From NCBI GenBank assembly GCA_964508015.1, contig CAZDRG010000001.1, positions 1 to 48,292 of the forward strand: DNA of 48,292 bases. Direction: 5' to 3'. Shown here in pieces: positions 4,470 to 48,292 of this stretch; within the stretch, counting starts at the first letter, position 1, and every line of letters begins with the position of its first letter. The stretch is from an uncultured Bdellovibrionales bacterium. GTDB lineage: Bacteria; Patescibacteriota; Minisyncoccia; Moranbacterales; UBA1568. Both the position numbers and the translations under genes were made by a program. The notes beneath the pieces were generated by a model. The model saw only the letters and a program-made list of their open reading frames with translations, did no database searches and was not told where the DNA came from.

Positions 4470-4492
4470 ATGAGTAAAAATTAATTATATTA

Positions 4493-4762: not shown

Positions 4763-4823
4763 ACTATTCTATCAAAAATCAATCGGGTAATCAAGGATGT
4801 GAGAAGGCTTCACGTGAACCATT

Positions 4824-6887: not shown

Positions 6888-6897
6888 AGGAAGGAAA

Positions 6898-8160: not shown

Positions 8161-8294
8161 AATCTCTTTTTTGTTTTGAGGATATACCGAAAGTATACCA
8201 TAAATACCTCTGCAAAACGACTTCTTAAGAAACCTCGTCTCGCAGAGACAATCTTCTTATCGCGTACAAAAACATCCTAGATACATACTTTTGG

Positions 8295-9317: not shown

Positions 9318-9354
9318 AGGTAATAAAATAATCGGATGAACATCTGTCCACCTT

Positions 9355-10641
9355 CTACGCAGAGTGCAATTCAGAATAGATGCGGAGAAGACGGTTATAC
9401 TTAGCCAAGCGCTCTCCGCGCGAGAGAGATCCTGTCTTAATAAAGCGTGAACCAGCCCCTACGGCAAGATCCGCGATAAAATCATCTCCTGTCTCCCCCG
9501 ATCGATGGGAAACAACTGTGTCAAGGCCATTCGAGTGAGCCAAAGTCATACAAGCCAATGTTTCAGAGAGCGTTCCAATTTGATTCGGCTTTATCAGAAC
9601 GCTATTACAAGATTTCGCGACCAATGCCTTCTCAACTCGCTCTTTATTCGTTACCAAAAGATCATCACCAATGATGAGTAGCTGCTTCCCCCAACTTGCA
9701 GGAGTAACAGTTAATTTGTCACTCATCTCACGCCAACCGTTCCAGTCCTCTTCATGGAGTCCATCTTCAAGAGAAACAATGTGATATTTTTCAATCCATT
9801 CTCGATACAAATTCGTGAGTCGATCACGAGTGAGATTCGCCCCTTCAGGCTGCATCTGATACATATCTTGCTCGGGAACATAGAAGGAATTTGCTGCGAC
9901 ATCAAGGCCAAGAAACACCTGTTTACCACTCTCATAACCCGCTTGCCCAATGGCTTGATTAATTTTTTCCAACGCCTGCGCGTGACTTTCGAGGCGAGGC
10001 GCAAATCCACCCTCGTCTCCAACGCCTGTTGAGAAATGATCAGTTTCAAGTAGTTTTTTGAGTGCATGAAAAATCTCGCTCCCCGCTCGCAATTGTTCTG
10101 GGTAAGAAACAATGCCGCTCGGCACTAATTTAAACTCTTGAACTGAGAGCCCGGAGTCACTGTGTTTCCCTCCATTCAGAATATTAAACATCGGCGTTGG
10201 AAAACGATTCATATCGAGAGACACCGCCATCATTTCGGCAATATACCGGTAGAGAGGAATCTGACGACTGAGAGCAGTAGCCCGAGCGGCTGCCAAAGAA
10301 ATACCAAGGAGTGCGTTTGCGCCAACACGGGATTTGTTTGGAGTCCCGTCGCATTCTCTAAGAATCGTGTCCAAGGAAAGCTGTTCGGCTGCATCGGTTC
10401 CCCTGACAGCATCACGCAATTCTCCGTTAACAAAACCAATCGCCTGCAACACACCAAGCCCGCCATAACGTCCAGCGTCACCATCACGAAGTTCGTGCGC
10501 TTCAAAAGTACCCGTTGAAGCACCCGACGGGACTCCGGCGACTGAAACCGTTCCATCTTCCAGGATCATGGTGACTTCGACTGTTGGATTACCACGAGAA
10601 TCAAGAATCTCACGCCCAGAAATATCTTTAATTATAGTCAT
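9355..10641 (-). CDS. eno: enolase
   Basis: 428 aa. The N-terminus IKDISGREILDSRGNPTVEV and the SHRSGET motif are present. Confidence 0.95.
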   Translation of the reverse strand: MTIIKDISGREILDSRGNPTVEVTMILEDGTVSVAGVPSGASTGTFEAHELRDGDAGRYGGLGVLQAIGFVNGELRDAVRGTDAAEQLSLDTILRECDGTPNKSRVGANALLGISLAAARATALSRQIPLYRYIAEMMAVSLDMNRFPTPMFNILNGGKHSDSGLSVQEFKLVPSGIVSYPEQLRAGSEIFHALKKLLETDHFSTGVGDEGGFAPRLESHAQALEKINQAIGQAGYESGKQVFLGLDVAANSFYVPEQDMYQMQPEGANLTRDRLTNLYREWIEKYHIVSLEDGLHEEDWNGWREMSDKLTVTPASWGKQLLIIGDDLLVTNKERVEKALVAKSCNSVLIKPNQIGTLSETLACMTLAHSNGLDTVVSHRSGETGDDFIADLAVGAGSRFIKTGSLSRGERLAKYNRLLRIYSELHSA

Positions 10642-10704
10642 AAATATGTCAGATCAATCTATTTAGTCGAAAGAAAACTCTAGCACGGCAACTCCTCGGT
10701 TTGC

Positions 10705-11766
10705 TTATTGCACCCGAGCGTCTCGGAGAGCGACGATACCTGGCAAGTCAACACCACTCATGTATTCCAACATGGCACCACCACCAGAAGAAACAAAACT
10801 AACCCGATTCATTGCATCAGCCGCTTCCAATACTGCGAGTGACTCGCCACCACCAATTATCACTTCCGCTTCTGTATCAAGAATAGCGTGTAAAATAGCA
10901 TCGGTTCCAATATCATAAGGCTTTTCCTCAAATTTCCCCATCGGCCCATTCCAGACAATAGTCTTAGCCGTTTTGATAATCTTGGTGAAGTAAGCAATCG
11001 TTTGCGCACCAATATCGAAACGTTCAGGAGCATTAAAATCTATTGGGAGAAGCACCTTGGGCGAAAATTCTATCTTTTGATCGAGCGCTTCATTCGCAAC
11101 CATTCCTCCGACGAGAATACAATCATAATTTGGCTCAAGAGCCTTAATCAAAGGAAGTTTTGTTTCAATTTTTGCCCCGCCAATAATAGCGATGGCTGGA
11201 TGCTCAGGATTAAGTCTTGTTTGATCCAGTTTTTCCATTTCTTCGAGTAAACGATAACCTGCAAAAGAAGGAAGGAACTTCGGAATCACTGTCACCGATG
11301 CATGATTTCGATGACAGACGCTAAACGCCTCATTCACAAATACATCAAATGGTCGTGCGAGATCCTTAGCTAATTCAATATCGCCTTCCTCTTCACCCTT
11401 TTTAAAACGGACATTTTCGAGAAGAAGCAACTCGCCTGGTTGCTGCTGTGCGAGCGCTTTCATAACCACATCCCCGGTACAATCAGAAACAAAAGTGACT
11501 TTCTTGCCTGTTGCATTTGCAACGCTCGCCACCAAACGCTCCGTCGAAGACGCAGCATCATACGCTCCTTCTTTCGGTCTTCCAAAATGAGTGAGCAAGG
11601 CTATTTTTGATCCCTCCTGCTCCCCTAAAAATTTCAGTGTTTCTTTGACAACATGAAATCGAAAATGTTCGTGAACATTCTTTATATCATCAAGCTCAAC
11701 ATTGTAATCTACTCGGACAAGTATATTTTTTCCTTTGAAATCTCCCTGGCGAAGTGTTTTCAGCAT
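10705..11766 (-). CDS. pgk: phosphoglycerate kinase
   Basis: 353 aa with LVRVDYNV, an N-terminal domain and a C-terminal GGGAMLEY-type nucleotide-binding region. Confidence 0.88.
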   Translation of the reverse strand: MLKTLRQGDFKGKNILVRVDYNVELDDIKNVHEHFRFHVVKETLKFLGEQEGSKIALLTHFGRPKEGAYDAASSTERLVASVANATGKKVTFVSDCTGDVVMKALAQQQPGELLLLENVRFKKGEEEGDIELAKDLARPFDVFVNEAFSVCHRNHASVTVIPKFLPSFAGYRLLEEMEKLDQTRLNPEHPAIAIIGGAKIETKLPLIKALEPNYDCILVGGMVANEALDQKIEFSPKVLLPIDFNAPERFDIGAQTIAYFTKIIKTAKTIVWNGPMGKFEEKPYDIGTDAILHAILDTEAEVIIGGGESLAVLEAADAMNRVSFVSSGGGAMLEYMSGVDLPGIVALRDARVQ

Positions 11767-11850
11767 ATATGTATTATTTTATCAGAAATTATGAACTCCT
11801 CTTCATTATTATAAACGATTTTTTACGAAGACGCTCCTACCCCCTCAATC

Positions 11851-12957
11851 TTAACGCGATCCCATGCCCAGAATTGCCATAATGACTCCAAGAAGTGCTG
11901 TCACAGCAGTGAATATCCAGGCCCGCATAACCACCTTAGGTTCTGGCCAGCCCTTCGCCTCAAAATGGTGATGGAGAGGTGCTGCTAAAAAAATCTTTCT
12001 GCCAAAAAAACGCTTACTCGTCAGCTGAAGTACAACACTTAAAGATTCTAATCCATAAATAGCTACCACTATAAACAGGGCGATAACCGAGTTCGTCAGA
12101 AGAGCCACGACACCCAGTGTTGTTCCGAGGGCGATCGCTCCGGTATCACCCATAAAAAATCGAGCTGGATAGATATTGAACCACAAGAATGCAAGAAGAG
12201 CGCCAGATACGGCCGCGCAAAATGACGCCAGGTCAGCTTTATTGTGCATAAAAGCAATAAAGGTAAAGGCGGTAAACGCAACCAGAAGCACTCCTCCGTT
12301 CAGACCATCGAGCCCGTCCGTTTCATTAGAAGAAATTGCCATGAACAAAATCACGAAAATAAACAATGGGATATACCAAAGTCCGATAGTGAAGTCGCCC
12401 ACTGCTGGAATGTGAATTGAGTCCCAACCAAGTTTGGCATAAAACCACCAAGACCCAAGCCCAGCAATAAGAAAAAGCCACCAGAATCGAAAAGCAAATC
12501 GTATCCCTCCTCCCTTATTAGAACCAATTTTCCTGACACTACAGTAATCATCAAGGAGTCCTAATACACCTGCTGTGACCAAAGCAAAAAGCGGTAGCCA
12601 CGTCTCTCGACGTCGAAGAAAATCAAGATTGGCGATAAAATTCGCTCCCGTCCAATCGGCAATAAACGGAAAGACAAACTGAGAAGCAAGAATCAACACG
12701 AGAACCGACACCCAAACAATAACTCCGCCCATGGTTGGAGTCCCTTCTTTGGCAGCGTGTAACTTACTGACGAAAGTGAGCTCATCACCCTGAACGCCGG
12801 TTTTCTTAATTTTAATTCCTATTTTGAATCGGTAGAGAATATGTGTCCACAATGGAGTAATCGCAAAAGCCAAGAGGAAAGAGAGTACTCCCGTAATGAG
12901 AATCTTAAAAACATTCGCCATTTCTGGAGCATATTGTACCTGTGGAATATCGAACAT
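11851..12957 (-). CDS. mraY: phospho-N-acetylmuramoyl-pentapeptide transferase
   Basis: 368-aa polytopic protein with NETDGLDGL and MGDTGAIALG motifs. Confidence 0.9.
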   Translation of the reverse strand: MFDIPQVQYAPEMANVFKILITGVLSFLLAFAITPLWTHILYRFKIGIKIKKTGVQGDELTFVSKLHAAKEGTPTMGGVIVWVSVLVLILASQFVFPFIADWTGANFIANLDFLRRRETWLPLFALVTAGVLGLLDDYCSVRKIGSNKGGGIRFAFRFWWLFLIAGLGSWWFYAKLGWDSIHIPAVGDFTIGLWYIPLFIFVILFMAISSNETDGLDGLNGGVLLVAFTAFTFIAFMHNKADLASFCAAVSGALLAFLWFNIYPARFFMGDTGAIALGTTLGVVALLTNSVIALFIVVAIYGLESLSVVLQLTSKRFFGRKIFLAAPLHHHFEAKGWPEPKVVMRAWIFTAVTALLGVIMAILGMGSR

Positions 12958-13032
12958 ACTGTATGATTAAATACTCTTTTTAGGACACTGTGCAATGAAA
13001 TATTCTCTTACTTTATCCTAGCAAACTTGTGA

Positions 13033-14070
13033 TTACTGCCAATCGAATGACCGAAAGCTCCAGTCAAACATCGAACGAATACTCTGCCACCGATACTGAT
13101 CATCCAGGACAACTGCTACCACCCGGTGATTTGATTCAGGGTGATGAGCCACTGCCAGGAGCGTCCGACCAGCCAGTGGTGTAAATCCAGTTTTCGTGCC
13201 AATGAGATTCGGCATTTGTCCGAGTAGTTCATCAGTGTTTAAGATATCATGCTGATACTTCCCGTCCACCGAAGAAATTTTCGCCGTCTCGAAACGCATC
13301 ATTTCCCAGAGGATATCGTGTTTCAAGGCCTGCATAGTCATCTTGGCCACATCTCGAGCACTTGAGTAACATTCATGCTCACGCCCGTCAGGCTCAAGAC
13401 CTGAAGGTGTACAAAAGTGAGTTTCTGTCATGCCGAGCTCCTTTGCCCGCTTATTCATGATTGTAGCAAATCCAGATTGAGTTGTCCCAATATGCTTCCC
13501 CAAAGCGATGGCTGCATCATTCGCGCTATTCATCAACGCTGCTTTGAGTAAATCTCGGACAGTAATCTGTTCACCGATTTTCAATCGTTCACCGATGCAA
13601 TATCCGCTTCTCGGACAACCAACGCGCGTTCCTTCCGCATAGACCGCTTCTTCATCAATAGTCACTGGTTCATCAAGATTCTTTACCTCCTCAACCGTAA
13701 TAAGAGCCGTCATCAATTTCGTCAGCGATGCAATCTGTCGATGATCATTCGCATTATCTTCGAATAGCGTTTCTTGTGAATCAGTATCAACAATCACCGC
13801 TGAATGCGCTGTCGGAACAGCAAGTTTTGATGCTGATGGTTTGAGCACTGGCTGATAAGTCGATGAAAAAGCACGATTTTCAAGAGCAATCGGATCTGTG
13901 TTCTTTTTCGGTTCAGGCTTCAATAAAAGTGTTGCTTCTTGGTAAGGAAAGGTCTCTTGTAATTGCACTGGTTCATGATTCACAAGAGCGCCCAACAAAA
14001 CCCGAAGCTCACCAGCATTGAACCAGAGCACCCCACACAGAAATAGAGCCGCTAAAACTCTCAAATTCAT
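13033..14070 (-). CDS. D-alanyl-D-alanine carboxypeptidase (S11 family)
   Basis: Signal/anchor helix followed by SLTK (SxxK), SAN (SxN) and KTGFT (KTG) motifs. Confidence 0.8.
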   Translation of the reverse strand: MNLRVLAALFLCGVLWFNAGELRVLLGALVNHEPVQLQETFPYQEATLLLKPEPKKNTDPIALENRAFSSTYQPVLKPSASKLAVPTAHSAVIVDTDSQETLFEDNANDHRQIASLTKLMTALITVEEVKNLDEPVTIDEEAVYAEGTRVGCPRSGYCIGERLKIGEQITVRDLLKAALMNSANDAAIALGKHIGTTQSGFATIMNKRAKELGMTETHFCTPSGLEPDGREHECYSSARDVAKMTMQALKHDILWEMMRFETAKISSVDGKYQHDILNTDELLGQMPNLIGTKTGFTPLAGRTLLAVAHHPESNHRVVAVVLDDQYRWQSIRSMFDWSFRSFDWQ

Positions 14071-14078
14071 ACACCATT

Positions 14079-14684
14079 TCAGACAGAAGAAGTATCACTT
14101 TGCATATCGGTACTCGCAGGCGGCTGCACTGATTTCTCTTGCTCGATCAATTGAAGGAGTCGCTCATCATTCTTCAGTGTTTCAAAATCAGGCAAATCCG
14201 AGACAGAAGAAACTCCCAGTGACTGAAGAAATTTAAAGGTTGGTTGATAGAGATATCCGCGACTCTCTTGGGGATTGCCGATTCGCTCAATCAGGTCTCG
14301 AAGAAGAAGATTCCGGAGCGTGAAACTGCAGTTTACTCCACGAATAGCCTCGATTTCAGATCGGGCAATTGGTGCGCGATATGAAATGATGGCCAAAACC
14401 TCAAGTGCGGCACGAGAGAGAGTCTCCTGAAGCGCCGCCTTCGTGAGCTGTTCCATAAATGGAGCATACAGGCCCTTGGTAGCCAATACCAAGCTTCCGC
14501 CATGTTGTACTACCTGAAGTCCTGATGCCTCATCATGTTCGAGTTTTTCTCGAAGCGTATCGATGAGATCAGCAAGTTCGGTAGTCGTTATGTCGAGTAT
14601 TTTTTCCAGGCGAACCAATGTCACCGGTTCTCCACTCACAAACAGGGCTGCTTCAAGCGCTCCGACAAGTTGTTTTTTCTCCAT
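14079..14684 (-). CDS. scpB: segregation and condensation protein B
   Basis: 201 aa with the EAALFVSGEPV start and tandem winged-helix-like layout. Lies downstream of scpA. Confidence 0.8.
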   Translation of the reverse strand: MEKKQLVGALEAALFVSGEPVTLVRLEKILDITTTELADLIDTLREKLEHDEASGLQVVQHGGSLVLATKGLYAPFMEQLTKAALQETLSRAALEVLAIISYRAPIARSEIEAIRGVNCSFTLRNLLLRDLIERIGNPQESRGYLYQPTFKFLQSLGVSSVSDLPDFETLKNDERLLQLIEQEKSVQPPASTDMQSDTSSV

Positions 14685-14751
14685 AATGAATGAATATTAT
14701 ACGCTCTACTAATTCATCTTGAGTCCTTATGGCTTTCGTACCATGGTAGAC

Positions 14752-15513
14752 TCATTCATTTGATACTATGTCCACCTGTTTTTTTGTTAAATCATGTTCA
14801 ATCCGACGCAGACGAATACCCTGAAAAAAATCATCCTGCTCAGCCACGAGAAAACATTGTTTGATCAATTCCAGCAGAGCAAGGAATGAAACGATTACCT
14901 CAGTCTTTTTGGAAGCAGATCCAGAAAACTCAGCAAACGATGTCTCTATACGATCCGCTAAATGATTCTGCAAGTGGAGAATTCTCTCTTCAAGAGACGC
15001 TACCTGTTCCACTATCTTCTCGGGTATTTCTTCGTACACCGGAATGTCTCCCAGCAGTGAGCGAAAGTGTCGCGCCAAATCATCGGCTGAAAAATCTTTC
15101 GGCGGGTAGAAGACCACTTGCGAACCCAAAAAACTCTCGCGAGAGAAAGATTCCTTTCGAAGTGTAAACGATGCACCAAGTACCACTGCCGCATCACGAA
15201 ACAATCTGTATTGACGCAGCCGCCATTCAAGATCATCTACCGATTCTTCTTCCTCCTCCGTAAATGTAAGCACCGGGAGAAGAGCTCTCGATTTGATTAA
15301 TAGTAATCGTGAAGCCACCGAGAGGAATGCCGCAAGATTTTCTAATGTGACATTTTTTTCGGTTGAAAGGTACTCCAGATACTGATCCGCAATCTGAGCC
15401 AGACTCACTGTTGTGATATCAAGCTTCTCTCGCTCAATAAGTGAGAGGAGTAAGTCCAACGGGCCCTCAAAATGATCCAATCGAAAATGATACCCCATAG
15501 GGAAACGAAACAA
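14752..15513 (-). CDS. scpA: segregation and condensation protein A
   Basis: 253 aa with FEGPLDLLLSLIEREKLDITTVSLAQIADQY, typical of ScpA kleisin. Confidence 0.85.
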   Translation of the reverse strand: MFRFPMGYHFRLDHFEGPLDLLLSLIEREKLDITTVSLAQIADQYLEYLSTEKNVTLENLAAFLSVASRLLLIKSRALLPVLTFTEEEEESVDDLEWRLRQYRLFRDAAVVLGASFTLRKESFSRESFLGSQVVFYPPKDFSADDLARHFRSLLGDIPVYEEIPEKIVEQVASLEERILHLQNHLADRIETSFAEFSGSASKKTEVIVSFLALLELIKQCFLVAEQDDFFQGIRLRRIEHDLTKKQVDIVSNE

Positions 15514-19138: not shown

Positions 19139-19215
19139 TGGTGGTCGCACCTGGACTCGAACCAGGGACCTCTGCAATGTGAATGCAGCGTTCTAACCAA
19201 CTGAACTATGCGACC
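19139..19215 (-). tRNA. tRNA-Val (anticodon CAC), CCA encoded
   Basis: Manual cloverleaf: GGTCGCA/TGCGACC acceptor stem, GTTC/GAAC D stem, CTGCA-TTCACAT-TGCAG anticodon arm, CCTGG-TTCGAGT-CCAGG T arm, A73, CCA. Confidence 0.9.
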
Positions 19216-19482: not shown

Positions 19483-19513
19483 GCACAAAGCAGATCCCCG
19501 TCTCGCCGTGAAA

Positions 19514-19543
19514 CTTGCTCCCAATCGCGGATGAACTCAGAAC
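19514..19543 (-). repeat. 30-nt intergenic element, copy A
   Basis: - strand GTTCTGAGTTCATCCGCGATTGGGAGCAAG. It shares GTTCT.A......T.C.......GGAGCA with copies at 42065, 42569, 43254 and 43983. Confidence 0.6.
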
Positions 19544-19600
19544 TATTTAGTGGGGAAATATCAGGAAAATGATTGGGGAAATAATGATGGTTTTGGAATA

Positions 19601-19643
19601 AAAAAGTAAAAGACCCGGGAGAAGCAGTCTTCTACTCCCGGGC
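19601..19643 (-). terminator. rho-independent terminator of 19690..20190
   Basis: cccgggag / ctcccggg forms an 8-bp stem followed by a T-run on the - strand. Confidence 0.65.
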
Positions 19644-41418: not shown

Positions 41419-41463
41419 AAAAAAAGAATGGTCCGCCCGAGTCTGAGAGACTGCGAGCGGACC
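41419..41463 (-). terminator. rho-independent terminator of cassette gene G1
   Basis: ggtccgc...gcggacc stem followed by a T-run on the - strand. Confidence 0.7.
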
Positions 41464-41484
41464 GTGGTGGGTGGCAAGGCGATG

Positions 41485-41799
41485 CTAGCCGACGTCGACA
41501 ATTTCGAAAGTGAAATCGACGTTGCCGATGACAATAATCACCGGCTTGCTAGTCTCCACTTCGACCGAGTCGTGGGGCACCAGCAGATTGTTACCCATGC
41601 GGGCCGTTCCAAGCATCTTAATGCTGGCCGCCGTATCACTTATTGAATTCAGATTCACGATCGCGATGATTTTGGGGAAGGCCGCCGTGATGTACCGATC
41701 GTGTCCGAGAGAATCCCGCTCAAACCGACCGACCGGTTCTGAAAACAACTTCGTGAAATTCTTGCCACCCATTATGGCACTGACTTTCAAAACTTTCAT
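41485..41799 (-). CDS. G+C-rich orphan protein G1 (104 aa)
   Basis: ATG preceded by GGAGG. It has its own promoter and terminator. No family recognised. Confidence 0.55.
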   Translation of the reverse strand: MKVLKVSAIMGGKNFTKLFSEPVGRFERDSLGHDRYITAAFPKIIAIVNLNSISDTAASIKMLGTARMGNNLLVPHDSVEVETSKPVIIVIGNVDFTFEIVDVG

Positions 41800-41861
41800 C
41801 CCTTACCTCCTTCTTGGAATACGTTGAAAAAACGAACTCTTTGCCACACATGTGACTCTAT

Positions 41862-41891
41862 ATGATAGCCATATTATTTATAAAGTGTCAA
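41862..41891 (-). promoter_or_regulatory. candidate promoter TTGACA-N18-TATCAT for G1
   Basis: - strand reads ttgaca ctttataaataatatggc tatcat. Confidence 0.45.
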
Positions 41892-42064
41892 TATCCGCGA
41901 TTAATGACTCAGGCGATTCAGACATTCTTGCACACGCTCAACCGTTCGAGAAAATGACTCCAGTGTCAGAAACCGAATCAAATTTTAACCAACCTCCTAC
42001 AGGAAGAAAATAGGCATTAAATCCTAGAGCTCACCGAAAGAGGCTTTGTTAAGCATCAAATTTC

Positions 42065-42094
42065 AATGCTCCCCCTAGTGGACAGACTTAGAAC
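42065..42094 (-). repeat. 30-nt intergenic element, copy B (followed by degenerate hairpin 42040..42059)
   Basis: - strand GTTCTAAGTCTGTCCACTAGGGGGAGCATT. Confidence 0.6.
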
Positions 42095-42150
42095 GTTTGA
42101 TTGGGGAAATATTGGGAAGATGATAGAAGAAATGGAGCGAGTTTTGGAAT

Positions 42151-42190
42151 AAAAAGAGTCTGAGGCCGCTGGGTGATACCATGCGGCCTC
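42151..42190 (-). terminator. rho-independent terminator of G2
   Basis: gaggccgc / gcggcctc forms an 8-bp stem followed by a T-run on the - strand. Confidence 0.7.
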
Positions 42191-42194
42191 GAAG

Positions 42195-42416
42195 TCACGG
42201 CGACACTGCGGCGACAACGGCTCTGAGAGCCAGAGCCACTTCGTAAGCCGTCGGTTTGCCAGGTAGGGCACCATCAGGGATCAGGTTCTTGTGCACGTCA
42301 TAGCCGCTGCGGCCACCCGTACCAACGATGATGAGTGCCTTGCCGCAGGGCAATACGACGCCACTGCCACCGGGGAACGTAAAGGTATCCCCGTTTTCAA
42401 AATTGATTGTTGCCAT
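42195..42416 (-). CDS. G+C-rich orphan protein G2 (73 aa)
   Basis: ATG with AGGAGG 7 nt upstream; Gly-rich protein (MATINFENGDTFTFPGGSG...). No family recognised. Confidence 0.55.
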   Translation of the reverse strand: MATINFENGDTFTFPGGSGVVLPCGKALIIVGTGGRSGYDVHKNLIPDGALPGKPTAYEVALALRAVVAAVSP

Positions 42417-42496
42417 GAGCAACCTCCTGTGAGATGTGAAACTTTCCCATTCAGCCGGGAACGTGGCTGTTGCTCAGTCAAAACTTGCAACTATAC

Positions 42497-42525
42497 AGTA
42501 TAGCACCTTTCTCAGCCGGTGTCAA
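42497..42525 (-). promoter_or_regulatory. promoter TTGACAcc-N17-TATACT for G2
   Basis: - strand reads ttgaca ccggctgagaaaggtgc tatact. A 13-bp palindrome (42491..42503) overlaps the -10. Confidence 0.6.
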
Positions 42526-42540
42526 TAATAAAACATACAT

Positions 42541-42560
42541 AGAGGTTTACAAAAGCCTCT
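42541..42560 (-). terminator. insulating hairpin (AGAGGCTT-N4-AAGCCTCT family)
   Basis: agaggtttacaaaagcctct lies 15 nt upstream of the G2 -35. Related copies are at 43226, 43957 and 48122, with a degenerate one at 42040. Confidence 0.5.
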
Positions 42561-42568
42561 ATTTAGAA

Positions 42569-42598
42569 GTTGCTCCCCCTAGTGGATAGACTTAGAAC
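42569..42598 (-). repeat. 30-nt intergenic element, copy C
   Basis: - strand GTTCTAAGTCTATCCACTAGGGGGAGCAAC. Confidence 0.6.
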
Positions 42599-42653
42599 TT
42601 TTGATTGGGGAAGTATTAAGAAGATGTTAGTGGAGGTTGATCTCTCTCTTGCC

Positions 42654-42710
42654 AAATAGAAAACCCGCCGTGCAACAAGTGGAGGATCTCCTATGCCTGT
42701 TGAGGCGGGT
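42654..42710 (-). terminator. terminator of G3
   Basis: acccgcc ... ggcgggt stem starting 1 nt after the stop codon, then tttctattt. Confidence 0.55.
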
Positions 42711-42711
42711 G

Positions 42712-43107
42712 CTAGATGAGCGTCTTCAGCCGCTCTTTCACTTGCTCCGGGATTCCGTCGTTTTGCAGAGCGTTGCGGAACCACGCCTCAAAGTAGAGAA
42801 AGTTTTCGCTCAAACCGCTGGGCCTTTGCCAGAACTCTTTGATCGCGCACAGCTCTTGCCACGTGCAAAGGTGGCGATGCTCCACGACCGGCGCCGGGAT
42901 GGTTCCATCAACTCGGGCAACGTCCAGGTTCGTGAACACGTACCCGGAATCGCATGGACGGACGACGAACTCTGACATCTTGCAGATTGCCCGGTAGTGA
43001 TGAGGGTCATCCTCAACATCACGGAAGCAGTACAGCAGCTCAAGTGAGGTATCTGATACCAGTGTCGAGATGCAAAGAGCGCCGAAGGGTGGCGTGAACT
43101 TGATCAT
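42712..43107 (-). CDS. G+C-rich orphan protein G3 (131 aa)
   Basis: ATG (MIKFTPPFG) with a GGAG Shine-Dalgarno sequence. The longer ORF-track start lies inside the promoter/leader. No family recognised. Confidence 0.55.
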   Translation of the reverse strand: MIKFTPPFGALCISTLVSDTSLELLYCFRDVEDDPHHYRAICKMSEFVVRPCDSGYVFTNLDVARVDGTIPAPVVEHRHLCTWQELCAIKEFWQRPSGLSENFLYFEAWFRNALQNDGIPEQVKERLKTLI

Positions 43108-43181
43108 GGCTTTCTCCTGTAAATGTGCTTTCCCTTTCTGCCGGGAACGTGGCCGTTGCTCTAACAAACTTGCAACTATAC

Positions 43182-43210
43182 AGGATAGCACCTTTCTCAG
43201 TCGGTGTCAA
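43182..43210 (-). promoter_or_regulatory. promoter TTGACAcc-N17-TATCCT for G3
   Basis: - strand reads ttgaca ccgactgagaaaggtgc tatcct, nearly identical to the G2 promoter. Confidence 0.55.
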
Positions 43211-43225
43211 TACTAAAACATACAT

Positions 43226-43245
43226 AGAGGCTTACAAAAGCCTCT
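43226..43245 (-). terminator. insulating hairpin (AGAGGCTT family)
   Basis: agaggcttacaaaagcctct lies 15 nt upstream of the G3 -35. Confidence 0.5.
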
Positions 43246-43253
43246 ATTTAGAA

Positions 43254-43283
43254 ATTGCTCCGCGGACTGGACGCTATTAGAAC
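43254..43283 (-). repeat. 30-nt intergenic element, copy D
   Basis: - strand GTTCTAATAGCGTCCAGTCCGCGGAGCAAT. Confidence 0.6.
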
Positions 43284-43345
43284 CTGTTTACAGGGTCAGG
43301 GCTACCAATATATCCCTGACATTGGCTCGGCTTGTAAGTGCTGGC

Positions 43346-43918
43346 TTACTTAGCTATGTCCTTCGCAACAATTCCTGCCTTTACTATTCCCCAGTCAGCA
43401 AAACCATTTGTATTGAGTCGTTCATAAACATTATCAAGCTTACCGAGAAGTTTGGCAAAGTACATGTTTATCGTGTAGCCATGGCCAACCACCAAAATCT
43501 TTTCGTTTTCGTACTGACTATCTAATTCTTCAATTTTCTGAGAAAACCGTCGTAATGCACTTTCGGCTGTTTCCCAGCTATTCACTGATTGTTTGGGATT
43601 CAGCAAACAATACTCCACCGCCTGTTCATATGCTTCGGCTTCCATGAAACCACCCTTATCCCGATTGAGCTCACTTATTTCTTCCAGTTGAATTACTTCT
43701 TTCTCTAACCTATCAGCAATCGGCCTGGCAGTTTGATAGGCTTTTCCCTCTGTCGAAGAAAAAACGATTTCTACCTCATCAAAAACTCCTTCTTGCGCTA
43801 ACTGATTTGCTTGCCCCTCACCAACATCTGAAAGAACCCACTGACTAATAGGGAGTTCTTTATTTACATTGGTTTTCCCATGACGGAGAAAATAAAATGT
43901 ATTGTTCATAGGCTCCAT
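43346..43918 (-). CDS. histidine phosphatase (phosphoglycerate-mutase-like) family protein
   Basis: FYFLRHGKT (RHG motif) near the N-terminus and VVGHG near the C-terminus. AT-rich like the host genes. The start could be 43909. Confidence 0.75.
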   Translation of the reverse strand: MEPMNNTFYFLRHGKTNVNKELPISQWVLSDVGEGQANQLAQEGVFDEVEIVFSSTEGKAYQTARPIADRLEKEVIQLEEISELNRDKGGFMEAEAYEQAVEYCLLNPKQSVNSWETAESALRRFSQKIEELDSQYENEKILVVGHGYTINMYFAKLLGKLDNVYERLNTNGFADWGIVKAGIVAKDIAK

Positions 43919-43956
43919 TATACCAGGTTCTAACCTACATCTGGGGGTATAAAAAA

Positions 43957-43976
43957 TGAGGCTTTAGTAAGCCTCA
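43957..43976 (-). terminator. rho-independent terminator (AGAGGCTT-family hairpin plus T6)
   Basis: - strand reads tgaggcttactaaagcctca tttttt. Confidence 0.65.
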
Positions 43977-43982
43977 AATTTC

Positions 43983-44012
43983 ATTGCTCCGCCTACTGAA
44001 CACTATTAGAAC
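43983..44012 (-). repeat. 30-nt intergenic element, copy E
   Basis: - strand GTTCTAATAGTGTTCAGTAGGCGGAGCAAT. Confidence 0.6.
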
Positions 44013-44085
44013 CTCCATACAAGAGGATAGAGCCTCAAAGTTCTACTACTTCGGGCTAAAGAAGTTTATGGAACAAGGTGTGTAA

Positions 44086-44114
44086 GATTTACTCCACCCT
44101 GCCACTCACTATAT
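44086..44114 (-). repeat. direct repeat, left copy (21-bp perfect core 44094..44114)
   Basis: ccaccctgccactcactatat is identical to 48178..48198. It covers the last codons (IVSGRV-E-stop) of the HTH gene. Confidence 0.75.
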
Positions 44115-44307
44115 TTCCAATTTCATACTCAACCCTTGCAACAATCTGCCTGACCCGCGTCCCGCTGATATGAAATTGGCTACCACACTCATCCAAAGAA
44201 TGCTTTTCGCCATTAGCCAGGCCGTGCCTATACTCAAAAATATCCAAGTATCTCGGCTTGAGCCTCAGCACATTCTTATAAGATTTGTATTCTTCTAGAA
44301 TGTCCAT
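44089..44307 (-). CDS. stand-alone sigma-70 region-4-like HTH protein (72 aa)
   Basis: LDIFEYRHGLANGEKHSLDECGSQFHISGTRVRQIVARVEYEI resembles the region 4.2 pattern (RfGL...tL.EiG..fgvTRERVRQIe). Start taken at MDILEEY, downstream of the Fic stop. Confidence 0.55.
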   Translation of the reverse strand: MDILEEYKSYKNVLRLKPRYLDIFEYRHGLANGEKHSLDECGSQFHISGTRVRQIVARVEYEIGNIVSGRVE

Positions 44308-44323
44308 AGTAAACCAGGCTTCA

Positions 44324-45385
44324 TTACAGCTTCCGATACCTCGTGCTCCGACCTGAACCGATTTTTTCAATCCTCTCCACCTTGAGAAGCCTGGTAAGAG
44401 CTTGGTTGACCGTTGGTCTGACAACTCCAGTCTTCTCCGCAATTTCTGATGGTGTGGCTTCTGAAACACCCTGAATATACTCCCAGACAGCAAGTTGCTT
44501 GGGAGAAAGAAGTTTTTCTATCTGCTCACTTTCCATCAGTTCCAGAGCTAGTTCGGATTGTTTGAGGAGCATCGTGAGAAAAAAATCTAACCAAGGAGTG
44601 ATGTCTTCTTTTTCTGTTCCAAAACTCTTCTGGCTTCTTCGCAAAGCGATGTAATAGTTCTCCTTGTTGTCCTCAATCAGCTTTTCGTGAGAGACATAGG
44701 GCGCATAGGCATAATCCTTTTTGAGTAAGAGAAGATTCGTCAAAACGCGAGAGAGTCTGCCGTTACCATCTTGAAATGGATGGATTCTCAAAAACTCCAC
44801 GATGAAGTTGCCAATCACGAGAAGTGAATGGATTTTCTTCTCTTCCAAAGCAGTGAGTGTAAAGCTCACCAGTTCCTGCATCTTCTTCGGGGTGAGATAG
44901 GCGGGCGTTGTTTCAAAGACAACTCCAATTTCCTTACCCTCTGTATCGAACATTTTGACCAAGTTTTCCCCTTTCTTGTATTCTCCTCGGTGTCGTTCGT
45001 CCTTTTCCACATACTTCAAAAGCTCTTTATGAAAATGCTTGATGGCACTCTCACTGAAAGAGAGGGCTCTCCAGACATCAAAGACATTGCTAAGCAGTTC
45101 ATAATACCCCTGCACTTCCTGCTCGTCTCGACTCTCCCACTTCCCAGGCTTTACGCCCTGAATGAAAGACTCGACTTCTGCATCAGAAAGCTTAGAACCC
45201 TCAATACGAGTGGATGCTCCAGAAGAAGTTACGAGCACTGATTTTTTCAGGCGAATCAAAATCTGGGGACTCAATTTCAGTCCACCAGTCCACCGCCCCT
45301 TGATTTCATCAATTTTTGCTATTTTAGCCCAGATTTCCCCTGGTAAAAGGGTGAATCTAGCTTCAAACTGGCTGTTATTCTCCAT
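44324..45385 (-). CDS. Fic-domain protein with C-terminal winged helix
   Basis: Fic motif HPFQDGNGRLSR, plus a C-terminal wHTH (ATPSEIAEKTGVVRPTVNQALTRLLK). Confidence 0.85.
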   Translation of the reverse strand: MENNSQFEARFTLLPGEIWAKIAKIDEIKGRWTGGLKLSPQILIRLKKSVLVTSSGASTRIEGSKLSDAEVESFIQGVKPGKWESRDEQEVQGYYELLSNVFDVWRALSFSESAIKHFHKELLKYVEKDERHRGEYKKGENLVKMFDTEGKEIGVVFETTPAYLTPKKMQELVSFTLTALEEKKIHSLLVIGNFIVEFLRIHPFQDGNGRLSRVLTNLLLLKKDYAYAPYVSHEKLIEDNKENYYIALRRSQKSFGTEKEDITPWLDFFLTMLLKQSELALELMESEQIEKLLSPKQLAVWEYIQGVSEATPSEIAEKTGVVRPTVNQALTRLLKVERIEKIGSGRSTRYRKL

Positions 45386-45436
45386 AATCTTATATAATAC
45401 TATGACTATATAAGATTATATGAGATTGTATAAGAT
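45386..45436. promoter_or_regulatory. inverted/direct TATAAGAT repeats between the RT stop and the Fic start
   Basis: aatcttatata (45386..45396) and tatataagatt (45407..45417) form a perfect 11-bp inverted repeat. A third tataagat lies at 45429..45436. Confidence 0.4.
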
Positions 45437-45439
45437 AAG

Positions 45440-46558
45440 TCAAATTGTAACCTCACCTTCTAAAAGACTGTCTTCAATCCTCTTCCGCAGCTTATACCCA
45501 TTCCCGTGCCGCAGAAGACCGAGATAAGACTCAACCGTTTCCCGCTTACCCTCCTTCTCACGGATATTCCGAAAGGCTCTGTTTTTGGTAACAGTGCGCA
45601 ATACCCGATGGTCTGGAAAGTGCGTCCATCCGAGAAAGTCCACGCCAGAAGCCACCGTCTTGATGAACACCTTATCAGGATGGAGCTTGAGACCCAGACG
45701 AAATTCAAGAAAAGCGCTTATCTGCAAGAGAGTTGTTTTCAATTGTCCCTTATCATCGGAAAATATCACAAAGTCATCAGCGTAGCGGATATAGTATTTC
45801 GCCTTTGCCTGATGTTTCATAAATTGGTCAAACTCGTTCATATAGACGTTTACCAGAAGTTGAGAGGTGAGGTTGCCGAGTGGTAAGCCCTTGCCTCTCT
45901 CTGTATGAAAGCTCCCAATGATTTCTGAAAGGAGATTAAGAATATCTTGGTCAGGAATATGCTTTTTCAGGATACTAAGCAGAACATCCTGGTCAATGGA
46001 AGCAAAGAACTTCCTTACGTCGCATTTGAGCGCCCACACAGTCCGTGTGTGATTATGGGAAGCCTTGCGAGCAAAGCTACGGAAGCGGTCAAGAGCCTTA
46101 TGGATTCCTTTATCATTTCGGCAAGAGTAAGAATCGGCAATGAACAGTCGGTCAAAGAAAGGATAGAGAATGCGGTAAATGGCACGATGGACTACTCTGT
46201 CTCTCACTCGCGCTTTATGGATATTTCTGGGCTTGGGGTCGGAGATGCTAAATGCTTCGTAGCGGGAGTGGCAATAGGTTTTGGAAGCGAGTTCCCGATG
46301 GATTGCAAGAAGGTTATCTGCGAGATGAAGTTCAAACTCTTCCACGTCTTTGCGTTTGTGTTTCCCTCGGATAAACTCTTTCCACGCCTCAAGGAGATTT
46401 TCGGGAGAAATGATATGATGATAATTGTCCGATAATTTTACTTTTTCCTTATGCCTACTTTTAACACCCCCCCCCCGCAGGTCTTGCCTCTTTTGCAAAG
46501 GCTCAAGGCCGTTTATCAATTGTGGCACAGCACGGTTGCACATATTCCAAAACTTCAT
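45440..46558 (-). CDS. DGR reverse transcriptase
   Basis: 372 aa with RT motifs including PLGNLTSQLLVNVYM (the DGR-type [IL]GxxxSQ) and YIRYADDFVIF (YxDD). TR/VR pair adjacent. There is no in-frame ATG/GTG/TTG closer to the conserved N-terminus (IISPENLLEAW), so the start at 46558 or 46543 overlaps avd. Confidence 0.85.
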   Translation of the reverse strand: MKFWNMCNRAVPQLINGLEPLQKRQDLRGGGVKSRHKEKVKLSDNYHHIISPENLLEAWKEFIRGKHKRKDVEEFELHLADNLLAIHRELASKTYCHSRYEAFSISDPKPRNIHKARVRDRVVHRAIYRILYPFFDRLFIADSYSCRNDKGIHKALDRFRSFARKASHNHTRTVWALKCDVRKFFASIDQDVLLSILKKHIPDQDILNLLSEIIGSFHTERGKGLPLGNLTSQLLVNVYMNEFDQFMKHQAKAKYYIRYADDFVIFSDDKGQLKTTLLQISAFLEFRLGLKLHPDKVFIKTVASGVDFLGWTHFPDHRVLRTVTKNRAFRNIREKEGKRETVESYLGLLRHGNGYKLRKRIEDSLLEGEVTI

Positions 46559-46828
46559 CGTTACACATTTGGAGGGAAAATAGACAAGCTCTTTCTTGAG
46601 GTATTAGAAATTGTTTTCCGAGCACAATACGCCAAGCCAGCAGAGAAGCTTCAATACCTGATTGCGGGGAGCGGCAAAATTGACCTGCTCAAATTCTTTC
46701 TCCAAATAGGATGGGAGAGTAAGTTGATTGATAATAAAAAATACCTCGCACTTTCCACTGAACTCCAGGAAATCGGGCGGATGCTTGGTGGTTGGAAAAA
46801 AGGCTTAGAAACAAAACTCTCGCCCTAA
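46451..46828 (+). CDS. avd: Avd-like four-helix-bundle accessory protein
   Basis: 125 aa with LPLLQRLKAVYQLWH..PKLHRYTFGGKIDKLFLEVLEIV...KIDLLKFFLQIGWESKLIDNKKYLALSTELQEIGRMLGGW, the pattern of four-helix-bundle (23S rRNA IVS/Avd) proteins. Encoded on the strand opposite RT and TR. Confidence 0.75.
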   Translation: MPTFNTPPPQVLPLLQRLKAVYQLWHSTVAHIPKLHRYTFGGKIDKLFLEVLEIVFRAQYAKPAEKLQYLIAGSGKIDLLKFFLQIGWESKLIDNKKYLALSTELQEIGRMLGGWKKGLETKLSP

Positions 46829-46837
46829 AGACGAGAG
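46817..46837 (-). other. small hairpin 15 nt 3' of TR, spanning the avd stop
   Basis: ctctcg-N9-cgagag followed on the - strand by ttttgtttc. Confidence 0.3.
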
Positions 46838-46851
46838 AAACTTTACACGTG

Positions 46852-46967
46852 GCCTGGGCAGAGAACCTGGTTGTCAGCGTTCCAGTTGCCATTCTCGTCG
46901 AGCTTCCAGTCGTTGACGTTCCACTTGCGGTTGTCGGAGTTCCAGTTGACATTCACGGCGAAGACTT
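46852..46967 (-). repeat. DGR template repeat (TR)
   Basis: Ungapped 116-nt alignment to 47306..47421 (offset 454). In the target frame it encodes VFAVNVNWNSDNRKWNVNDWKLDENGNWNADNQVLCPG, with AAC/AAT codons at the variable sites. Confidence 0.85.
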
Positions 46968-47191
46968 TGTGCCTTGAACCATCCGTTCCACCACCCCTCG
47001 ACTACTCTTGGGGTTGTATCGTATGCGGGACATAGAAGTCCACCAGTTCAAGACACCAACGCATTATATTTTTTTGAAAATAAAACGACACGCTGACTGA
47101 AGACCCTTTCCGCAATCATTCTGGCACATTTCACTTCCAGTATCCTGACCTTTCAGCCGTAGCCGAAAGAAATTTCCAACATACCTTCTTC

Positions 47192-47200
47192 ATTATATCA
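47192..47200 (-). promoter_or_regulatory. extended -10 (TGaTATAAT), candidate TR-RNA promoter
   Basis: - strand tgatataat lies directly after the target-gene terminator, about 225 nt upstream of TR. Confidence 0.35.
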
Positions 47201-47245
47201 AAATAAAAAGACCCGAGGAATCTGCGATGCAGTTTCCAAGGGTCT
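47201..47245 (-). terminator. terminator / post-VR hairpin of the DGR target gene
   Basis: - strand agacccttggaaactgc-atc-gcagattcctcgggtct followed by tttttatttt, about 60 nt downstream of VR. Confidence 0.65.
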
Positions 47246-47290
47246 AAGAGACTAAGCGTCCAAGGGTCTTTTGCCCAATGGACTGAAGGG

Positions 47291-48010
47291 TCAGAGTGCC
47301 GCGTTGCCTGGACAGAGAACCTGGTTGCCAGCGTTCCAATTGCCATCCTCGTCGAGCTTCCAGTCGTAGACGCTCCACTCGCGGTTGCCGGAGAACCAGC
47401 GGACAAACACGGCGAAGACTTCACCGTTTTTGCCCTCGACGTAGAAGATGTTCGCGTAGCCGTTATTGAGCAGGAAACCCGACTTGCCGTTGGGCTGTGC
47501 TTCGATGAGGCCTGCGATGTCTTCCAGCGTGGACAGGTGGGTTTCCGGCAGTTCCTTGCGGATGTCCTTGTCGTAGGCGTTCGCTTTGAGGAGCGAGGCC
47601 ACATAGGGACGTTCGGGAGCCGAATCCACCGTCTGCCTGGCGCTCAAGTCGAGGCGGTCTGCGAACGTGTCGTAGACGTAGAGGCCGGTGCCGGTCTGGT
47701 AGAACTCTGCCGCATTGAAGGGCTTTGTCCTGGCCGGAACGGTTGACTTGCTGACAGGCTTGAGGAGCCTGGTTTCAGCGAGCACCGGGTAGCGCGAGCT
47801 CAACTGCTTGAGAGCGTTGATGGTTGCCCGTTCGATGGCAACCTTGAGCTCGTCGCCGCGCACGATGACCAACTGGGCACCGTCCTTGTCGAGAAAAGTC
47901 GCTTGAGCTACTGCCGTTTTGGCGGCGCTTTCAGCGGCATCCGCGACGAAACGCACGAGTTGCTTGTCCTGTCCTGGCGTAATTGCTGACGTGATTGACT
48001 GTGTCATCAT
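47291..48010 (-). CDS. DGR target (variable) protein, 239 aa
   Basis: ATGATG start with AAGGAG 5 nt upstream. VR occupies the C-terminal ~40 residues. No hydrophobic signal or TM segment seen. G+C-rich. Confidence 0.8.
   Translation of the reverse strand: MMTQSITSAITPGQDKQLVRFVADAAESAAKTAVAQATFLDKDGAQLVIVRGDELKVAIERATINALKQLSSRYPVLAETRLLKPVSKSTVPARTKPFNAAEFYQTGTGLYVYDTFADRLDLSARQTVDSAPERPYVASLLKANAYDKDIRKELPETHLSTLEDIAGLIEAQPNGKSGFLLNNGYANIFYVEGKNGEVFAVFVRWFSGNREWSVYDWKLDEDGNWNAGNQVLCPGNAAL
47306..47421 (-). repeat. DGR variable repeat (VR)
   Basis: Encodes VFAVFVRWFSGNREWSVYDWKLDEDGNWNAGNQVLCPG. It differs from TR at 14 positions, 12 of them TR adenines. Confidence 0.85.
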
Positions 48011-48084
48011 CGTCTCCTTTGTCAAAGAAAATCCCCTGGATGCCGGGAATCGAGGCAGTCGGAAGCTTTCACTTACAACCCATA

Positions 48085-48113
48085 ATTATACACCTTTTTA
48101 GGCTTGGTGTCAA
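48085..48113 (-). promoter_or_regulatory. promoter TTGACAcc-N17-TATAAT for the DGR target gene
   Basis: - strand reads ttgaca ccaagcctaaaaaggtg tataat. Confidence 0.6.
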
Positions 48114-48121
48114 TACAAAAA

Positions 48122-48141
48122 AGAGGCTCTACAAAGCCTCT
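48122..48141 (-). terminator. terminator hairpin (AGAGGCTT family) of the upstream partial gene
   Basis: - strand agaggctttgtagagcctct followed by tttttg, 8 nt before the -35. Confidence 0.6.
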
Positions 48142-48168
48142 GAAAAACCCATTTATGCTATTTTCGAT

Positions 48169-48198
48169 GATTTTACCCCACCCTGCCACTCACTATAT
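48169..48198 (-). repeat. direct repeat, right copy (perfect core 48178..48198)
   Basis: Identical 21-mer to 44094..44114. It covers IVSGRV-G-stop of the partial ORF. Confidence 0.75.
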
Positions 48199-48292
48199 CC
48201 AAGAGCTGATTCGGGTTAGCTTTCAGGTCAATGAGGATGAACTTGTCCAAAGCCCCTTTTTCAATCAAGACACTCTTCTCTCCTTCAAATTG
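48173..48292 (-). CDS. 3' end of a hypothetical gene (partial, runs off the window)
   Basis: Open frame ...QFEGEKSVLIEKGALDKFILIDLKANPNQLLDIVSGRVG-stop, followed by a terminator. Confidence 0.4.
   Translation of the reverse strand, partial: QFEGEKSVLIEKGALDKFILIDLKANPNQLLDIVSGRVG

Follow-up and report, generated by a model that had tools for sequence, protein, structure and literature searches.

Gene gain is little understood in bacteria of the candidate phyla radiation (CPR), whose genomes are tiny. The window described here, a stretch of 48,292 nt, is contig 1 of the 109 contigs of a metagenome-assembled genome of Candidatus Moranbacteria (CPR), which comprises 0.87 Mb at 45% G+C and is 78% complete. 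Close to one end of the window lie three small genes of the minus strand, G1 (41485-41799, 104 amino acids), G2 (42195-42416, 73 amino acids, Gly-rich) and G3 (42712-43107, 131 amino acids), and they raise the question of how unrelated coding sequences came to stand behind shared intergenic sequence. An initial annotation had described the three as orphan gene cassettes separated by a reusable module, consisting of a 30-nt element, a hairpin (AGAGGCTT) and a promoter, and had linked them to a neighbouring diversity-generating retroelement (DGR). The coordinates and sizes of the three open reading frames (ORFs) were as claimed, and the upstream regions of G2 and G3 were indeed near-identical, with a common block of 165 nt, 118 nt of matching sequence at 88% plus 41 nt at 85%, and 87% identity over the 150 nt from the hairpin to the ATG.

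Our analysis points to large serine recombinases (LSRs). The part of the window from 41.9 to 48.3 kb is probably a portion of a genomic island built from units that are bounded by relics of LSR attachment sites. Comparisons covered 31 relatives for the 30-nt pattern and a terminator loop, 107 genomes of the family for LSRs and a shared leader, and 319 genomes of the order for one type of module tail (type A). Loci in other genomes are given as L-numbers and genomes as G-numbers, the present genome being G000.

The intergenic module and large serine recombinase genes

The 30-nt element follows the pattern GTTCKRA-N5-TYC-N8-GAGC, which occurs in 16 of the 31 relatives, with 0-1 for reversed-pattern controls. 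Its copies are clustered and, within each cluster, co-oriented, an arrangement that rules out a REP- or MITE-like dispersed repeat, and in seven mapped arrays they usually lie directly 5' of a gene on the same strand. The modules are specific to Moranbacteria and are 75-90% identical over 60-200 nt between loci. A whole-module profile search of the present genome, as proposed with the initial annotation, returned five copies only, four of them in the island and the fifth at 19.5 kb, all lying within the window.

On the opposite strand, the element and ~60-90 nt beyond it encode conserved peptides that have a stop but no conserved start codon. Three types of these tails can be told apart by their peptides: type A (LLPLVDRLRTFDWG.I.KM..E.E..), type B (LLAWRDSFRTFEWEKAFPDP..SL.EI..LL.L. 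and stop) and type C (LLRLLNTIRTSIQEDKESKFYYFGLKKFMEQGV and stop). Mean entropy at codon positions 1/2/3 was 0.69/0.38/0.78 for type A (16 copies), 0.78/0.63/1.16 for type B (31 copies) and 0.30/0.31/0.53 for type C (15 copies). The tails evolve like coding sequence, third positions being the most variable. That they are small antisense protein genes was considered and rejected, because the first codon varies (TTG, CTG, TGG, TAG, CAG, ATG) and intact LSRs read into the tails.

LSRs are present in 75 of the 107 family genomes, and their C-termini follow one plan: ..[RT]FEP.. codons (GGTTCGAACC, the right arm), a hairpin-coding stretch and LL (TGCTC). Past TGCTC the genes run either antisense into a genuine tRNA 3' end (LLRRQDSNL and stop; MLRGSDSNRRP..; WRGRRDSDPRPPQ and stop) or into a type-B tail. 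At L012 (contig C7 of G014) a protein of 500+ amino acids with Resolvase and Recombinase domains continues in frame through the TTCGAA right arm, the hairpin and the type-B tail. The intact LSR of L066 ends in ..LVLAWRDSFRTFEWEQ..LLIFAF and the proper stop of a type-B tail, and an LSR at L090 terminates within a type-C 30-nt element that it reads in a different frame. A pair of LSRs with 81% identity match as far as ...TGCTC and then part, one entering a tRNA and the other a type-B tail; the partners are switched after TGCTC, and the junction is therefore placed at ...GAGCA on the gene-sense strand. The only LSR detected in the present genome (C90:11-1567, minus strand) ends in ..TWRERRDSDPRPPQ and a stop, running antisense through a tRNA 3' end. 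C90 is a 2.4-kb contig, and this LSR-tRNA end lies at its edge.

Aligned with each other, site and tRNA end read GGTTCGRAAGCTGTCCCGCCAAGCGAGCA against GGTTCGAATCCTGTCGCCGGAGCA. By this comparison the type-B element is best read as a diverged copy of the tRNA end GGTTCGAATCCTGTCGCCGGAGCA, and the 30-nt element as a mimic of a tRNA 3' end. The locus L012 holds a 13-kb LSR element (2132-15261) between direct type-B copies at 2132-2158 and 15235-15261. The cargo of that element is of defence type, with an EVE+GmrSD nuclease, a D12 methyltransferase and an Eco57I/TaqI-type methyltransferase.

On their opposite strand, the 30-nt element and the AGAGGCTT hairpin correspond to the last ~30-50 codons of an LSR gene that crosses its own attachment site. 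Homology to LSR 3' ends, likeness to tRNA ends, flanking direct copies and breakpoints at the site were all found. The module would thus represent an LSR attachment junction, a tRNA-end mimic joined to an LSR 3' end, from which the recombinase body is missing. The initial annotation had picked out a reusable module that is real between G2 and G3, but had not recognised it as a recombinase-gene remnant with an attachment site.

In the window the modules lie on the minus strand. W1 (43927..44114) is complete and shows every part including an inverted right arm; from high to low coordinates it consists of a 27-nt end piece (44088-44114), a type-C tail (plus strand, 43984-44082, LLRLLNTIRTSIQEDRASKFYYFGLKKFMEQGV and stop), the 30-nt element (43986-44012), the hairpin (43958-43975) and the inverted right arm (43927-47, GGTTAGAAC), the counterpart of the ..FEP.. 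codons of the LSRs. In W2 (43214..43332) a type-C 30-nt element (43257-43283, with ...GAGCA ending at 43256) precedes a hairpin (43224-43247); a type-C tail is missing, and a hairpin GTCAGGG..CCCTGAC, read from the sequence and not folded, stands instead behind the histidine phosphatase gene upstream. W3 (42529..42659) contains a type-A tail (plus strand, 42570-42656, LLPLVDRLRTFDWGSIKKMLVEVDLSLAK and stop), a 30-nt element (42572-42598) that ends ...GAGCA at 42571, and a hairpin (42541-42560). W4 (42037..42149) has a type-A tail (plus strand, 42066-42149, MLPLVDRLRTFDWGNIGKMIEEMERVLE and stop), a 30-nt element (42068-42094) and a degenerate hairpin (42040-42057), with a second, partial module copy beside it (41977-42004). 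The fifth copy (19499..19605), whose type-A-like tail carries a TAG inside it, is found ~300 nt upstream of tRNA-Val (19139-19215, minus strand), the only match in an Rfam gathering scan of the window. This copy stands behind a terminator and outside the island, and the 300-nt spacer to tRNA-Val has a promoter-like site.

Several observations weigh against an LSR origin of the island or narrow its scope. Types B and C are linked to LSRs directly, whereas the link of type A is indirect, W3 and W4 matching by shared architecture and core consensus only. The modules of the island are of types A and C, but in-frame fusion to an LSR was seen for type B only, and type C stands beside an LSR only in the other frame of L090. 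No intact LSR with a type-A or a type-C tail was found in the 107 family genomes, and none with type A in the 319 genomes of the order. If integration of an element leaves the native tail stranded at the far end, type A should indeed be absent beside LSRs; the type-A link is one of architecture only. The window holds no recombinase gene, its contig ends at 48292 with no tRNA anchor visible, and the sole LSR detected in the 78%-complete genome lies on a different contig (C90). One G2 locus elsewhere is also without the 30-nt element.

Movement of the G2 and G3 cassettes

Seven close homologues of G3, 71-92% identical, were found in Moranbacteria, where their neighbours are genes for 123- and 155-amino-acid unknowns, HD_4 and NUDIX genes, or methyltransferase and glyoxalase genes. 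Two homologues of G2, 92% (L009) and 82% (L010) identical, likewise stand in other gene contexts. Homology of the G3 unit with L007 spans 43260..42572, from the GAGCA of the upstream element to the end of the downstream element (..GAGC), that with L003 spans 43292..42571, and that with L001 spans 43290..42533, ending just past the hairpin. Between the present genome and that of L001 the G3 region, counting its non-coding parts, shows 87.5% nucleotide identity over 763 nt, and G3 itself is 92% identical, compared with 34-64% for core orthologues. This difference, together with the 92% identity of G2 to L009, indicates recent horizontal transfer of G2 and G3 among divergent Moranbacteria. The cassette shuffling proposed in the initial annotation is strongly supported for G2 and G3 by the comparison of cassette content among relatives, in which both genes occur between different neighbours, homology ends at module borders and identity lies far above background.

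Homology of G2 with its native loci (L009, L010) begins only at 42434, 18 nt 5' of the ATG, and those loci have a different promoter and leader. On these grounds the G2 of the present genome appears to have swapped its native promoter for a copy of the G3-type promoter-leader, joined at the Shine-Dalgarno sequence.

A mechanism that would produce such an island starts from an LSR gene at the edge of a mobile element, reading outward across its own attachment site. Its last codons comprise the right arm, the hairpin and LL, followed by either an antisense tRNA 3' end or a look-alike with a tail of ~30 codons (A, B or C). G3 and G2 read as single-gene cargo units, each made up of a junction relic (...GAGCA and spacer-hairpin), a sigma-70-type promoter, a leader, the coding sequence, a terminator and the next tail with its 30-nt element, and the histidine phosphatase gene and a block with the DGR and a Fic gene look like further cargo units. 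Such units have been traded horizontally among divergent Moranbacteria and re-assorted at module borders, and G2 gained its promoter-leader through a recombination event at the Shine-Dalgarno sequence. The anatomy, the homology between the module and LSR 3' ends, the breakpoints, the transfer signal and the portability of the promoter-leader are observed; we infer that the insertions here were the work of an LSR and that units without a recombinase are mobilised in trans and are not the decayed remains of full elements. An LSR family whose gene spans its own attachment site would offer CPR bacteria a concrete route of gene gain, and tRNA-end mimics would let islands grow away from the tRNA itself.

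A bolder form of this proposal is put forward tentatively, as possible rather than probable. Moranbacteria might possess an integron-like cassette economy driven by LSRs, in which recombinase-less single-gene cassettes (hairpin, consensus promoter, stabilising leader, coding sequence, terminator, tail and tRNA-end mimic) would be complete substrates, captured, excised and exchanged in trans at ...GAGCA. The tails would then be under protein-level selection as the LSR C-terminus in one state of the element, and would form a built-in integration/excision switch.

The breakpoints that fall on the opposite edge of the 30-nt element, or directly past the hairpin, also count against the LSR account: not all events can be a single clean crossover at GAGCA, and homologous or illegitimate recombination contributes too. 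In a rival explanation no site-specific recombinase acts here and the modules are a lineage-specific intergenic repeat of LSR-end origin, the cassettes being re-assorted and transferred purely by homologous recombination. Module identity of 75-90% over 60-200 nt is enough for exchange, the breakpoints are mixed (left edge of the element, GAGCA, after the hairpin, at the Shine-Dalgarno sequence), the promoter swap of G2 is clearly not site-specific, and the window lacks an LSR. However, two independent G3 comparisons end within one base of ...GAGCA, where related LSRs switch partners, and at L012 two such elements enclose an LSR element that is complete. The copies also form clusters of strictly uniform orientation, as integration arrays do, and the tails keep a coding substitution pattern. 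We consider homologous recombination by itself unlikely.

Shared promoters, base composition and known mobile systems

As the initial annotation stated, each of G1-G3 has a near-consensus promoter (scores of 10-11/12), a Shine-Dalgarno sequence and its own terminator (z -3.4 to -7.1). A promoter scan of the region gave 18 promoter-like sites against 9.0 +/- 3.1 in shuffles, the best being directly 5' of G1-G3 and of the DGR target gene. On the minus strand, the promoter and leader of G3 occupy 43108..43210 (promoter 43182-43210, TTGACA-17-TATCCT with TG, 10/12; P1 43155-43176; P2 43130-43147), and its intrinsic terminator, followed by a U-run, lies at 42664-42709 (-24.3 kcal/mol, z -3.4). Those of G2, on the same strand, occupy 42417..42525 (promoter 42497-42525, TTGACA-17-TATACT with TG, 11/12; P1 42469-42491; P2 42444-42461), and its terminator GAGGCCGC-AUGGUAUCACCCA-GCGGCCUC, again with a U-run, lies at 42162-42190 (-21.1 kcal/mol, z -5.7). 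The design shared by G1-G3, a consensus promoter with an extended -10, a strong Shine-Dalgarno sequence and an own terminator, implies autonomous and probably high expression. Promoter-leader and terminator blocks reused around unrelated coding sequences would allow a foreign gene to be expressed at once.

The loop of the G2 terminator, AUGGUAUCACCCA, recurs behind unrelated cassette genes (L036, L009, L010, L001, L060, L083, L095), and the stem varies while the loop is kept, with GCCGC/GCGGC here and AACUG/CAGUU in L095. Of the 31 relatives, 5 have the loop, each of them once (reversed-pattern controls, 0), and it may be more than a part of a terminator.

A block of hairpin, TTGAC(A/T) promoter and leader precedes the G3 orthologues and, in the present genome only, G2. 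It also stands 5' of an 87-89-amino-acid gene (G009, L098), a 129-131-amino-acid gene (G064, G017), a 124-amino-acid gene (G096) and a 117-amino-acid gene (L095). By BLASTP the six families of coding sequence behind the block, a number that is a minimum, show no mutual similarity, so the claim of unrelated genes behind shared regulatory sequence held. The DGR target, too, has the hairpin-promoter design that had been ascribed to it, with a hairpin at 48122-48141, a perfect TTGACA-17-TATAAT promoter (48085-48113, 12/12) and a leader hairpin at 48032-48049; it carries a diverged copy of the block, 65% identical to that of G3 over the hairpin-to-ATG stretch. The leader, which reads GTTGCAA..GCAAC and then UUCCCGGC-N5-GGGAA, is rare: it was found in 5 of the 107 family genomes, and a pattern scan of metagenome contigs gave only three true instances and three chance G+C-rich matches. 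RNAalifold predicted two 5-bp hairpins with one compensatory pair.

These leaders invite a regulatory explanation, in which the hairpin-promoter-leader is a cis-regulatory device, riboswitch-like or a protein-bound 5' untranslated region, that co-regulates G2, G3 and the DGR target as one set. The leader is conserved from the -35 to the Shine-Dalgarno sequence before the six unrelated families, though diverged at the DGR target, and one stem pair covaries (UUCCC/GGGAA to CUCCC/GGGAG), and CCCGGC is invariant. However, the compensatory change affects 1 of 10 predicted pairs and only among G3 orthologues, the folding energy is no better than that of shuffles (z -0.2 to -0.45), and the leader has no Rfam match. 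Its restriction to so few family genomes, the different promoters and leaders of native G2 loci, a DGR target without the leader in the same genus, and the occurrence of G2 and G3 elsewhere without a DGR all speak against a common regulon, and the recent spread of one promoter block would explain the conservation equally well. A regulon of this kind is therefore rather improbable. The co-regulation envisaged in the initial annotation, with the shared leader and the compensatory pair in its favour and the absence of excess folding energy and of an Rfam match against it, is possible but weakly supported, and a role of the leader as a 5' stabiliser, or simple co-inheritance, is more likely than a riboswitch.

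G+C content at third codon positions (GC3) averages 0.45 (sd 0.07) over the genome and reaches 0.66 in G1, 0.70 in G3 and 0.75 in the DGR target, which places these genes in the top ~2%, and base composition shifts at gene borders. This would be expected if G+C-rich genes of a higher-GC organism had been chimerically joined at the modules during assembly or binning. Yet assemblies made independently from other samples (L001, L003, L007, L009, L010, G009) show the same G+C-rich coding sequences set in the same A+T-richer modules, G1 is syntenic and G+C-rich in three relatives, and the modules are specific to Moranbacteria, all of which makes an artefact very improbable. A classical integron, with the modules as attC sites and a tyrosine integrase IntI off the contig, would fit an array of small, co-oriented, unrelated ORFs between similar imperfect palindromes, but it can practically be dismissed, as the site ends are GTTCKRA...GAGCA and not RYYYAAC...GTTRRRY, every cassette comes with a promoter of its own, the repeats share homology with tRNA 3' ends and with the ends of serine-recombinase genes, and no IntI or other tyrosine integrase stands next to any array examined.

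An island of units bounded by LSR attachment-site relics can be compared with several known systems. The closest described are the ssrA islands of Dehalococcoides, in which the serine recombinase DsiB builds tandem islands bounded by ssrA 3'-end repeats and holding strain-specific cargo, and in which several integrase-less units were proposed to be cis-mobilizable or accreted (McMurdie et al. 2011, PMC3146451). A serine recombinase, a tRNA-like 3'-end target, short direct repeats and integrase-less units are common to both. The present modules differ in that a diverged tRNA-end mimic is joined to a conserved recombinase coding tail, with the attachment site inside the LSR reading frame; a unit can be a single gene equipped with its consensus promoter and terminator, the host belongs to the CPR, and no DsiA-type helper or six-gene integration module was seen here.

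In phage-type large serine integrases (A118/LI Int, Bxb1, phiC31, SPbeta SprA) attP is generally found outside the integrase ORF, and most of the targets are protein-coding genes. The LSRs share with them the Resolvase and Recombinase domains, the position of the integrase by the element end and the direct, non-identical attL and attR, whereas here the ORF spans the crossover point, so that integration would alter the C-terminus of the enzyme, and tRNA 3' ends or mimics of them serve as targets. The SSV1-type integrases of archaeal fuselloviruses are tyrosine recombinases with attP inside the int gene and a tRNA target, the gene being split near its 5' part. In both cases the integrase gene contains the attachment site, which matches a tRNA gene end, and integration partitions the gene and leaves orphan fragments at island borders; the recombinase here is of the serine type and only its last ~30 codons are exchanged. 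Integron cassettes (IntI/attC) resemble the present ones as small, unrelated ORFs of one orientation between related sites, with content that varies among relatives, and differ in recombinase class, site structure and site origin, and in the own promoters, leaders and terminators of the cassettes here. A literature search found no paper on CPR LSRs with an ORF crossing the attachment site, and recombinase-built island accretion of the present kind is apparently undescribed. It would account for the orphan repeats and the G+C mosaic, and the modules provide a handle on the accessory gene pools of Moranbacteria (defence genes, DGRs, Fic). LSRs with short sites are also possible tools for genome engineering.

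G1, the retroelement block and other genes of the region

G1, adjoining zf_Tbcl and DUF4153 genes, has a promoter at 41862..41891 (minus strand, TTGACA-18-TATCAT, 11/12) and an intrinsic terminator hairpin followed by a U-run at 41430-41463 (minus strand, -26 kcal/mol, z -7.1). Homologues of 109-114 amino acids, 23-34% identical, occupy the same position by zf_Tbcl/DUF4153 in three genomes of the same genus (L031, L032, L034), and the neighbouring DUF4153 gene is 56-80% identical where the G1 homologues reach only 23-34%. The C-terminal motif GNV.FTFEIVDV is kept, and GC3 is elevated in G1 and all its syntenic homologues. On account of this synteny and of a promoter homologous to those of the same-genus homologues, G1 reads as a resident gene that evolves fast and keeps its position throughout the genus, and not as a cassette. 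The homology likewise assigns its promoter to the resident gene and not to the shared module, and the island starts upstream of the G1 promoter. The view of G1 as an orphan cassette with the shared module had to be given up: it has no shared promoter-leader, its upstream region is only 51% identical to that of G3 and the upstream module is degenerate.

In the same-genus genomes a glycosyltransferase cluster comes after the G1 homologue; here that cluster is on contig C6, with other neighbours. A simple insertion between G1 and the cluster was considered and is not demonstrable. A glycosyltransferase gene ending in ..IVSGRVG was looked for and not found.

Searches of Pfam, PHROGs, NCBIfam, PADLOC and PDB sequences with G1-G3 gave no match. 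The genes are thus without a recognised family, as initially described, but G1 has its syntenic homologues, and a HMMER search over 1.84 billion representatives returned 27 relatives of G3 (cluster representatives) at E up to 0.001. The G3 family shares the motifs CFRD..D..HY..IC and HRH.CTW.EL.AIKRLW. Structure prediction, which had been suggested for G1-G3, was run for G3. An AlphaFold model from 8 close homologues only was unusable (pLDDT 39); the distant HMMER relatives made it usable, and the family alignment gave pLDDT 94.5 and pTM 0.87, with seven strands and then three helices. Foldseek with this model found no match in PDB or BFVD (best TM < 0.4, E > 0.02), and the predicted fold may be new. 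A confident predicted fold without a structural relative makes the G3 family a target for experiments.

The array extends further than the G2/G3 part that had been outlined, as the histidine phosphatase (His_Phos_1) gene (43346-43918, minus strand) is bounded by W1 and W2, modules of the same kind. Beyond W1, the DGR-Fic block (44089..48198, minus strand, 4.1 kb) appears to be another cargo unit of the island. It comprises a sigma-r4-like gene (44089-44307), a SoFic-like Fic gene (44324-45385, minus strand; PADLOC SoFic model, 1.8e-41), a reverse transcriptase gene (45440-46558, Pfam), avd (bAvd, 46451-46828, plus strand, Pfam), a template repeat (46848-46967) and the DGR target gene (47291-48025) with its variable repeat (47302-47421). 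The DGR is complete, with reverse transcriptase, bAvd and the variable/template repeat pair. The block is bracketed by 27-nt repeats (44088-44114 and 48172-48198), the outer ends of the type-C module.

The hidden functional set linked to the DGR that the initial annotation had suspected was not borne out. No reverse transcriptase was found among the called genes of the G2- or G3-bearing loci elsewhere, G1-G3 contain no repeat like the template repeat, and G1 is resident. In the same genus a DGR (L015) also lies between modules, and its target has a different leader. The DGR thus reads as a neighbouring cargo block and not as a functional partner of G1-G3.

The SoFic-like Fic protein is a candidate anti-phage defence protein, and Fic genes lie between modules in L001 and L013 too. 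The 27-nt repeat, also found in L003 upstream of G3, contributes the final ~8 codons with their stop (..[IV]V[SE][GS]RV[GE]) of otherwise unrelated upstream genes, namely the sigma-r4-like gene (..NIVSGRVE and stop), the ORF at the window end and HD_4 in L003, and in 15 copies it is conserved past the stop codon of the tail. The ORF at the window end (48173-48292, minus strand) is cut by the end of the contig and is 88% identical over 34 amino acids to a 139-amino-acid gene of L003, which belongs to a ResIII/HARE-HTH/DUF2726 cluster just upstream of G3. The island probably continues past the contig end with genes of the ResIII/HARE-HTH/DUF2726 type.

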